Below are positions 42,095 to 43,230 of a stretch of DNA of 64,000 nucleotides, piece after piece. The notes beneath the pieces were generated by a model. That model was given only the letters and a program-made list of their open reading frames with translations, had not been told where the DNA came from and did no database searches. The stretch is from an uncultured Pelagibacteraceae bacterium (lineage in GTDB: Bacteria > Pseudomonadota > Alphaproteobacteria > Pelagibacterales > AG-422-B15), in the NCBI GenBank assembly GCA_902571005.1, contig CACGAG010000004.1, positions 178 through 64,177 on the forward strand, in the 5' to 3' direction. Every line of letters starts with the position of its first letter. Position 1 is the first letter of the stretch. The translations under genes were made by a program, and so were the position numbers.

Positions 42095-42136
42095 CAATTA
42101 AAAAATTATATATCCTTGATATATAATAGGATTTTT

Positions 42137-42211
42137 GGGCACGTAGCTCAGTGGTAGAGCATCACGTTGACATCGTGGGGGTTGTTGGTTCGATCCCAAC
42201 CGTGCCCACCA
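42137..42211 (+). tRNA. tRNA-Val(GAC)
   Basis: GGGCACG/CGTGCCC acceptor stem, GCTC/GAGC D stem, TCACG-TTGACAT-CGTGG anticodon arm (GAC at 42169-42171), GTTGG-TTCGATC-CCAAC T arm, encoded CCA. Confidence 0.98.
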
Positions 42212-42268
42212 TAAATCTGAATTATATGTTGTTTTTTATTACTTAATTAGATAAAAGATCGCAGTATT

Positions 42269-42403
42269 ATGAAAAAGCCAAATAAAATCAGAGAAGCAAG
42301 GCTCAATAAGATGAGATCTAGAAAAAATAACATTCGTAAAGAAAAAGTTAGACTTAAAAAAATTGAAGAAGCAAATGCACCACAAACGGAGCCTCAGCAA
42401 TGA
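42269..42403 (+). CDS. Small basic protein, 44 aa (below ORF-track cutoff)
   Basis: [44 protein letters not shown]; TGA overlaps the rpmJ ATG (ATGA at 42400-42403). Confidence 0.7.
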
Positions 42404-42525
42404 AAGTTAGAAGCTCACTAAAAAACCTTAAGACAAGAGACCGTAATAATAAGCTTATAAAAAGAAAAGGTCGTCTATACGTTATTAATAAAAGAAACCC
42501 ACGAATGAAAGCTCGTCAAGGCTAA
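42400..42525 (+). CDS. rpmJ: 50S ribosomal protein L36, Zn-free type (not in ORF track)
   Basis: [41 protein letters not shown]. Confidence 0.97.
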
Positions 42526-42531
42526 TAATAT

Positions 42532-43230
42532 TTGTCGTCTAAAAAAAATAAAAGAATTCTTTTTATTGCAGATCATGCATCAAATTATATACCAAGTTCG
42601 TTAAAAAATTTAGGCCTTAAAGACAACCAATTAAATTCACATATTGCGTATGATGTAGGTGTAAAAGAATTATGCATTAATTTGTCTAATCTTCTTAACT
42701 CTAATTATATTATAGGCGAATACTCAAGACTTGTTATTGATTTAAATAGAGATATTTCAGATCCAACATTAATTCCAGAAATAGTTGATAGAAAAATAAT
42801 AAAGAAAAATTTGAGTCTAACTAATTATGATAAGAAAAAAAGAATTTCAGAGATCTACAATAAATATCATAACAAAATTAAAACAGCTATAAAACATAAT
42901 AATATAATGGCATTAATTTCTCTTCATTCATTTAATCCTATATTCAAAAAGCAAAAACGAAATATTCATTATGGCATTCTATCAAATCAAGATAGAAGAC
43001 TGAGTAATTATATAATTACAGAAATGAAAAGAAGGAAATTAAAAGTCGGTGACAATGAGCCGTATGAGGGAAATTTAATTGGTGATACGATGTATAAACA
43101 CGGTCTTAAAAATAATTTACATCATACTTTAATTGAGGTCAGAAACGATTTACTTTCTTCCTCAACTAAGATACACAGAGTATCAGTACTATTAAAGCAA
43201 GTAATTAATAATTCAATTAATAGGATTTAA
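42532..43230 (+). CDS. N-formylglutamate amidohydrolase family protein
   Basis: TTG start; ADHASN.IP, HIAYDVG, SRLVIDLNR, SLHSF.P, DNEPY.G, IEVRNDL. Confidence 0.88.
   Translation: MSSKKNKRILFIADHASNYIPSSLKNLGLKDNQLNSHIAYDVGVKELCINLSNLLNSNYIIGEYSRLVIDLNRDISDPTLIPEIVDRKIIKKNLSLTNYDKKKRISEIYNKYHNKIKTAIKHNNIMALISLHSFNPIFKKQKRNIHYGILSNQDRRLSNYIITEMKRRKLKVGDNEPYEGNLIGDTMYKHGLKNNLHHTLIEVRNDLLSSSTKIHRVSVLLKQVINNSINRI

Follow-up and report, generated by a model that had tools for sequence, protein, structure and literature searches.

The 44-codon open reading frame (ORF) at positions 42269–42403 on the plus strand of the window, by which we mean the whole stretch of 64,000 nucleotides that was analyzed, is a genuine protein-coding gene under strong purifying selection. 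We tentatively favor the reading, which we would place somewhat short of an even chance, that its product is an rRNA-binding microprotein, acting either as a stoichiometric component of the ribosome or as a partner in its assembly. SAR11 bacteria rank with the most numerous cells of the ocean and are a textbook case of genome streamlining; that an entire family keeps a 44-codon gene, constrained much like a ribosomal protein gene, tied to rpmJ, and without relatives elsewhere, points either to an additional, new component of the ribosome or to a new kind of partner in ribosome synthesis. In what follows, “host family” denotes the one SAR11 family, comprising four genera, that carries the microprotein gene, and “sister family” denotes the Pelagibacteraceae within SAR11.

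The ORF starts with ATG and terminates with a TGA at 42401–42403, in a region that is AT-rich (29.4% GC). Upstream of it lies a gene for tRNA-Val (GAC anticodon; 42137–42211, plus strand), recognized both by ARAGORN and by Rfam (RF00005, 69.9 bits), which is the upstream neighbor of the ORF in all four host-family genera; a tRNA is likewise found upstream in the genera labeled g5–g7. Downstream, rpmJ (42400–42525, plus strand) encodes a Cys-less bL36 of 41 amino acids (PF00444, 63.6 bits, E = 1.7e-17), and the TGA of the ORF shares bases with the rpmJ ATG at 42400–42402. A preliminary description of this DNA had placed an ORF with 15 Lys/Arg among its first 31 residues between tRNA-Val and rpmJ, with an ATGA overlap to the latter, and all three elements are borne out, the second of them by a count on the translation. 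A gene of the N-formylglutamate amidohydrolase family (42532–43230, plus strand; PF05013, E = 2.7e-33) begins 7 nt past the rpmJ stop codon, and since no terminator-like site was found between the two, it is probably part of the same operon as rpmJ in this genus; the gene that follows rpmJ is a different one in genera g5 and g6.

Evidence that the ORF is a gene comes from 49 loci extracted from the four genera of the host family, which represent 43 distinct nucleotide sequences. No stop codon interrupts the sense frame in any of the 43, both remaining sense frames are interrupted in every one, and the antisense frames are closed either in 31–32 of the sequences or in all of them; the chance of a 50-codon open frame at this nucleotide composition is P ∼0.013. 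Codons 1–34 align without gaps across the 43 sequences, with an entropy of 30.2 at the third codon position, compared to 8.9 and 7.9 at the first and second positions, respectively. The Nei–Gojobori dN/dS over these 34 codons is 0.056, with a pS of 0.66 that brings synonymous sites near to saturation, and a value of 0.060 is obtained in a 30-genome set; by comparison, the shifted frames give ∼2, the enzyme gene after rpmJ gives 0.26, and rpmJ itself gives 0.016–0.024, all of these being pairwise figures that pool related genomes and are descriptive rather than a formal test. The nonsynonymous divergence (pN) in the same 30 genomes ranks the three genes in the same way, with rpmJ lowest (0.020), the ORF intermediate (0.067), and the downstream enzyme gene highest (0.188). 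It is because the frame is open throughout, and because dN/dS is low in the sense frame only, that we consider the gene to be real, and the check that had been proposed at the outset, namely conservation of the ORF upstream of rpmJ in relatives together with its dN/dS, yields an open frame in every distinct sequence and a ratio of ∼0.06.

These same data bear on the possibility that the ORF is a chance frame in an AT-rich spacer, or that the real feature of this region is an RNA or is located on the opposite strand, which we regard as virtually negligible. Lys/Asn-rich frames do arise from AT-rich DNA, and the stretch contains both a 53-codon antisense ORF and a weak antisense match to Rfam, which at 41 bits is below the 59-bit cutoff; against this, the antisense frames are closed in most of the sequences in which the sense frame is open, and both the codon-position pattern and the dN/dS ratio are specific to the sense frame. 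An RNA element is argued against by a predicted fold that is no more stable than those of shuffled versions of the region (z = 0.0), and by Rfam, which at threshold reports the tRNA alone. An antisense gene and a structured RNA are therefore both ruled out by the combination of frame closure, sense-frame dN/dS, and folding z-score.

The association between the ORF and rpmJ is tight, with the ORF directly upstream of rpmJ in every locus read. A six-frame search recovers it from 20 of the 24 genomes of the same genus, and across the host family it is present in 45 of 60 genomes. All 15 genomes without the ORF also lack a detectable rpmJ, while the same rpmJ model finds its target in 61 of 61 control genomes, and the locus is therefore unassembled in those single-cell or metagenome assemblies. 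Among the 60 host-family genomes, we found none that has rpmJ without the ORF.

The junction between the two genes is likewise preserved, in its geometry more than in its letters. The position of the ORF stop codon relative to the rpmJ ATG shifts among the 43 sequences: most have the ATGA overlap, and the others have a TAA that overlaps by 1 nt or a TAG, which either precedes the ATG by 2 or 6 nt or falls 11 nt into rpmJ. The Shine–Dalgarno (SD) sequence of rpmJ, GGAG at 42388–42391 (plus strand), is found 8 nt before the ATG and thus inside the ORF, across codons 40–41, where a nearly invariant Glu is encoded, and GGAG, GAG, or AGAG is present 8–10 nt before the rpmJ ATG in most relatives. 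The 16S rRNA of this genome carries the canonical anti-SD CCTCC, its 3′ end reading ...CACCTCCTTTCT. This coupling geometry is kept while the sequence of the tail changes, and with its stop codon between −11 and +6 nt of the rpmJ ATG and an SD within the ORF tail, the arrangement is, by its layout, that of a translationally coupled pair. It is structurally evident, as judged from the arrangement of these signals, that the end of the ORF is laid out for putative termination–reinitiation or SD-dependent coupling to rpmJ. Translational coupling of this kind is typical of subunits of one complex that are made in equal amounts.

The ORF is without a canonical SD of its own. Instead, a conserved noncoding block is found at 42228–42257 (plus strand), which consists of GTTGTTTTTT at 42228–42237 followed by a box at 42250–42257, (T/G)ATAAAAG, TATAAAAG, that ends 12 nt before the ORF ATG. 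The distance from this block to the ATG is constant across the four genera, even where tRNA-Val is 70–130 nt further off, and the block may be either a promoter element similar to a −10/−35 region, or an upstream-shifted partial SD in which AAAG pairs with CUUU at the 3′ end of the 16S rRNA. Further upstream, before tRNA-Val, a consensus scan returned a sigma-70-like promoter match, TTAAAA-18-TATAAT, at 42098–42127 (plus strand; 10 of 12 positions matching), which could drive a transcript comprising tRNA-Val, the ORF, and rpmJ; this is a consensus match only, and such sites are no more frequent in the region than in its shuffles.

Taking these features into account, the ORF could be mainly a translational device, that is, an upstream cistron (leader or uORF) that feeds ribosomes to rpmJ or regulates it, and whose peptide is of little importance. 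The ORF does resemble the coupled upstream cistrons and leader peptides of ribosomal-protein operons, in having an ATGA overlap and a downstream SD inside the upstream coding sequence, and both the position of its stop codon and the combination of a missing canonical SD with a conserved upstream box fit such a role. It is unlike such leaders, however, in that the microprotein is itself under ribosomal-protein-like selection over its N-terminal 34 residues, where the invariant residues are found and where a dN/dS of 0.06 coexists with near-saturated synonymous change, and in that attenuator-like RNA structure is lacking, the fold being at the level of its shuffles. A leader or arrest peptide would be marked by stop-proximal conservation or by a gating RNA structure, whereas here residues 1–34 are conserved and the part of the ORF closest to rpmJ is the variable part; in addition, neither the sister family nor the other alphaproteobacterial rpmJ loci (26 readable) have a basic coupled upstream cistron. 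A pure leader is thus disfavored because the constraint falls on the N-terminal 34 residues and not near the stop codon, and we consider this explanation improbable. The preliminary description had also suggested a leader controlling L36 synthesis, and of this suggestion the coupling layout stands, while the location of the constraint and the absence of excess RNA structure speak against it. Taken together, these last two observations indicate that the peptide has a function of its own.

The protein is 42–45 amino acids long across the members of the family, and in the window it has a pI of 11.1, a net charge of +9.5, and a Lys/Arg content of 36% overall. It is divided into a conserved cationic module (residues 1–34) and a tail (residues 35–44) that is variable in both sequence and length, and its last 10 residues are acidic or polar, with a pI of 4.05. 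AlphaFold2, when provided with the family alignment, predicts a single 31-residue helix spanning residues 6–36, with a mean pLDDT of 85 (blocks 88/97/94) and a low-confidence tail. Fourteen alignment columns are invariant, ten of which are the basic residues K2, K3, K6, R8, K14, R16, K19, R23, K26, and K30, the others being M1, E9, L12, and N13; judged from the alignment, such a pattern of invariant Lys/Arg is as expected for a peptide that would run along a nucleic-acid backbone. With fewer than 50 residues, a pI above 11, a simple helical form (as predicted), and conservation in four genera, the protein has the features of a small basic ribosomal protein.

The proximity of the two genes also raises the question of a diverged tandem duplicate of rpmJ, and a BLASTP comparison aligns residues 6–44 of the microprotein with residues 2–40 of bL36 at 38% identity (E = 0.013), in a single comparison of the window’s own pair, with shuffle tests giving p ∼0.002–0.013. 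This similarity does not extend to the family as a whole: profile–profile alignment with hhalign returns a probability of 0.3, other members and other bL36 sequences mostly score z <2 against shuffles, with reversed bL36 scoring alike for many pairs, and PF00444 matches none of 17 members at E values up to 10. Moreover, the predicted fold is one helix, as opposed to the small beta structure of bL36. We consider a duplication origin very improbable, it being largely refuted by the hhalign result and by the failure of the similarity across other members and other bL36 proteins.

To place the gene in its wider context, we searched genomes and databases with both the single sequence and a profile. 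The profile search locates the ORF in four genera of the host family, and the public contigs that match it are SAR11 single-cell genomes and metagenome-assembled genomes (MAGs). In 241 sister-family genomes, the profile gave chance-level matches within long ORFs only, a six-frame search of 400 other Alphaproteobacteria returned no matches, none of the 26 readable loci among 29 alphaproteobacterial rpmJ loci fetched has a basic coupled ORF upstream, and no match was found in viral contigs. Among 1.84 billion representative proteins, the profile has 17 matches, of which the 16 with sequence are members of the microprotein family or miscalled or chimeric extensions of it, and the 17th is a 680-residue protein matched in five short stretches (E = 8.4e-5), which we take to be low-complexity. 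Pfam, NCBIfam, and PHROG gave no meaningful match to the microprotein, and all PDB chains, searched with the profile and the single sequence at E values up to 10, gave none. On these searches, the microprotein family is an orphan that is restricted to one SAR11 family.

The exact protein is nevertheless already present in public collections, where it carries no name; clustering at 90% identity places it in a group of 267 members, and a single variant occurs on at least 999 contigs. The statement in the preliminary description that the gene had been missed by the ORF track is plausible solely as the effect of a length cutoff. The ESM Atlas holds the microprotein letter for letter, with its nearest clusters all annotated as “hypothetical protein” and its nearest named clusters, DUF6800 (0.79) and DUF2986 (0.77), below the level that the Atlas tool itself treats as a lead, and our literature search found no paper on the gene. 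Unnamed in databases and shorter than common ORF-length cutoffs, the microprotein is a clean marker for the host family.

Returning to the reading that we tentatively favor, the ORF would be the first cistron, followed by rpmJ, of a transcription unit downstream of tRNA-Val, and ribosomes that finish the microprotein would start on bL36 directly, such that the synthesis of the two proteins would be tied together. The microprotein would then join bL37, bS22, and bTHX among the small ribosomal proteins that are confined to particular lineages, and it might be located on the large subunit near bL36. We infer RNA binding, ribosome association, and location from several features that support this reading, namely a constraint close to that of a ribosomal protein, the constant linkage to rpmJ, the coupling layout, and the basic single helix that is predicted; additionally, the same slot between tRNA-Val and rpmJ is occupied in the sister family by the 5S rRNA gene, which is another ribosome component. 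There is also precedent for such proteins escaping annotation, as bS22 and bL38 of Borrelia and bL37 of mycobacteria are small, basic, and helical, were unannotated, and were found only by cryo-EM (PMC10618245). The candidacy as a ribosomal protein put forward in the preliminary description accordingly holds insofar as the ORF is conserved upstream of rpmJ, with a dN/dS of ∼0.06 and a size, charge, and single predicted helix that fit the class it named, while similarity to the members of that class (bS22, bL37, bTHX) is not detectable.

Several observations count against the ribosomal reading. The microprotein has no sequence similarity to any ribosomal protein or solved chain, and no copy of the gene was detected in the 400 Alphaproteobacteria or the 241 sister-family genomes, and therefore no conserved ribosomal pocket requires it. 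AT-rich DNA is also prone to encode helices rich in Lys, Asn, and Arg, having a single ribosomal protein gene as a neighbor is weak evidence of function, and a lone predicted helix is uninformative about the binding partner. This leaves room for a real, conserved microprotein with some other partner, for example an RNA or DNA chaperone, a nucleoid protein, a helper in tRNA or 5S processing, or a regulator, in which case its place before rpmJ would reflect only operon packing in a streamlined genome. We consider this possible, if somewhat doubtful. The evidence that the gene is real applies equally to it, it is compatible with both the lack of similarity to known ribosomal proteins and the lack of a detectable copy in the rest of the class, and in this genus the operon runs on into an unrelated enzyme gene. 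It accounts less well for an rpmJ linkage and a start/stop coupling that have persisted without exception in four genera in which the gene after rpmJ varies, or for a constraint near that of a ribosomal protein, and the context suggests no other partner.

If the microprotein is ribosomal, its closest parallels are small lineage-specific proteins. Like mycobacterial bL37 (24 amino acids; PDB 5o60 chain 3), it is very short, basic, helical (as predicted), lineage-restricted, and was long unannotated, and the host-family uL30 is a short protein of 60 amino acids without a helical extension, as is the case in mycobacteria. In E. coli 50S structures, bL36 binds near the region of the bL37 pocket. 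The pocket that bL37 occupies in the 23S rRNA is formed by H39–H42, H89, and the 5S rRNA, and in Borrelia the N-terminal helix of a long uL30 takes the equivalent place (PMC10618245). The microprotein differs from bL37 in being nearly twice as long and in having an acidic tail, and homology between the two was rejected, with local alignment at the level of shuffles (z −1.1 to 0.8, using a bL37 query verified against PDB 5o60_3) and no NCBIfam match.

It also resembles bS22 (of mycobacteria, Bacteroidota, and Borrelia, with the analogues mS38 and eL41) in being basic, helical (as predicted), unannotated, and highly conserved within a lineage. Borrelia bS22, which binds an rRNA pocket, consists of 61% Lys/Arg (PMC10618245), compared to 36% for the microprotein, whose gene is coupled, by its layout, to a large-subunit protein gene; the bS22, mS38, and eL41 chains in the PDB gave no match to either the profile or the single sequence at E values up to 10, and NCBIfam and Pfam gave none. 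With bTHX of Thermus and plastids, the microprotein shares the character of a short, basic, lineage-specific peptide, and no sequence similarity between the two was found in NCBIfam and PDB searches. bTHX is a small-subunit protein, and its gene is not known to be coupled to rpmJ.

The tRNA-Val/rpmJ slot differs between the two SAR11 families. In the sister family, it reads tRNA-Val, 5S rRNA, rpmJ, with 12–15 nt between the 5S gene and rpmJ (the tRNA-Val was seen in two loci), and a TATAAA box is found 4–6 nt before the mature 5′ end of the 5S; from this arrangement, rpmJ looks to be cotranscribed behind the 5S rRNA. In one complete sister-family genome, the 5S gene is 46 kb from the 23S gene, in agreement with the published layout in which the hypervariable region HVR2 separates the 23S from the 5S (PMC3448164). 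The 16S, 23S, and 5S genes are contiguous in the present genome and in a second host-family genome, and the place that 5S takes in the sister family is here occupied by the microprotein gene. We did not find either this contrast between the two families or the abutment of 5S and rpmJ described in the papers that we consulted. As regards a possible origin of the ORF as a decayed 5S gene, DNA similarity is absent (z −1 to 2), and there is no 5S match at E values up to 10, so that this candidate was rejected.

We also compared ribosomal proteins between the two families, covering four protein families (bL25, bS20, bL35, and uL30), of which bL25, bS20, and bL35 are present in both. uL30 (PF00327) is found in 18 of 19 host-family genomes, but 0 of the 101 sister-family genomes that are 85% complete or better, many of them fully complete, have it, and the Pelagibacteraceae thus appear to be without rpmD. 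In the present genome, the uL30 gene (G000:C3:60911-61063, minus strand) encodes the 60-residue protein and is in its usual place between rpsE and rplO. The idea that the ORF replaces a lost ribosomal protein was rejected, as bL25, bS20, and bL35 are kept and the difference in uL30 is the opposite of that expected, since it is the sister family, not the host family, that lacks the protein. The host family therefore has a short uL30 together with the predicted microprotein helix, and the sister family has neither, a correlation that amounts to one phylogenetic contrast, with other Alphaproteobacteria having uL30 without the ORF. Separately, we note that a 23S hairpin following the conserved GUAACGGGGCUAAA...ACCGAAG, at position about 1151 (G000), is 12 nt shorter in the host family, on the basis of two genomes compared with two from the sister family; our reading is that the shortened hairpin is the H45 region.

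These contrasts allow a more specific version of the ribosomal reading, which we consider rather unlikely as a whole. Here, the microprotein would be a new ribosomal protein born within one SAR11 family, perhaps from the AT-rich spacer between tRNA-Val and rpmJ, without relatives elsewhere, and would occupy the slot that holds the 5S gene in the sister family. Its binding site would be on the large subunit close to bL36, one candidate being the bL37/uL30 pocket of H39–H42, H89, and the 5S rRNA, and it would be part of a family-level remodeling of the SAR11 ribosome, in which the host family would have kept uL30, a 5S gene linked to the 23S, and a shorter hairpin in the H45 region, and the Pelagibacteraceae would have lost uL30 and unlinked the 5S gene. 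If the microprotein is indeed ribosomal, ribosome composition would differ between major SAR11 lineages, with uL30 and the microprotein in one and neither in the Pelagibacteraceae. The lineage-specific ribosomal proteins of bacteria, a short list so far, would then gain a representative from the Alphaproteobacteria, which bears on the gain of proteins by the mitochondrial ribosome.

Finally, the public record of this gene contains a number of irregularities. Several public gene calls extend the ORF upstream through tRNA-Val or as far as the gene before it, others run out into sequence unrelated to the microprotein, and these aberrant calls are miscalled starts, frameshifts, or chimeric contigs. 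The Met-Lys-Lys with which the protein normally begins is missing from one public variant, whose start codon may be TTG. The MAG contig PBNH01000005.1, which is labeled “Rhodobiaceae bacterium SP193”, has a GC content of 29% and the exact layout of tRNA-Val, microprotein gene, and rpmJ, at a locus closely similar to the one in a SAR11 single-cell genome, and it was probably mislabeled through an error in binning or taxonomy.
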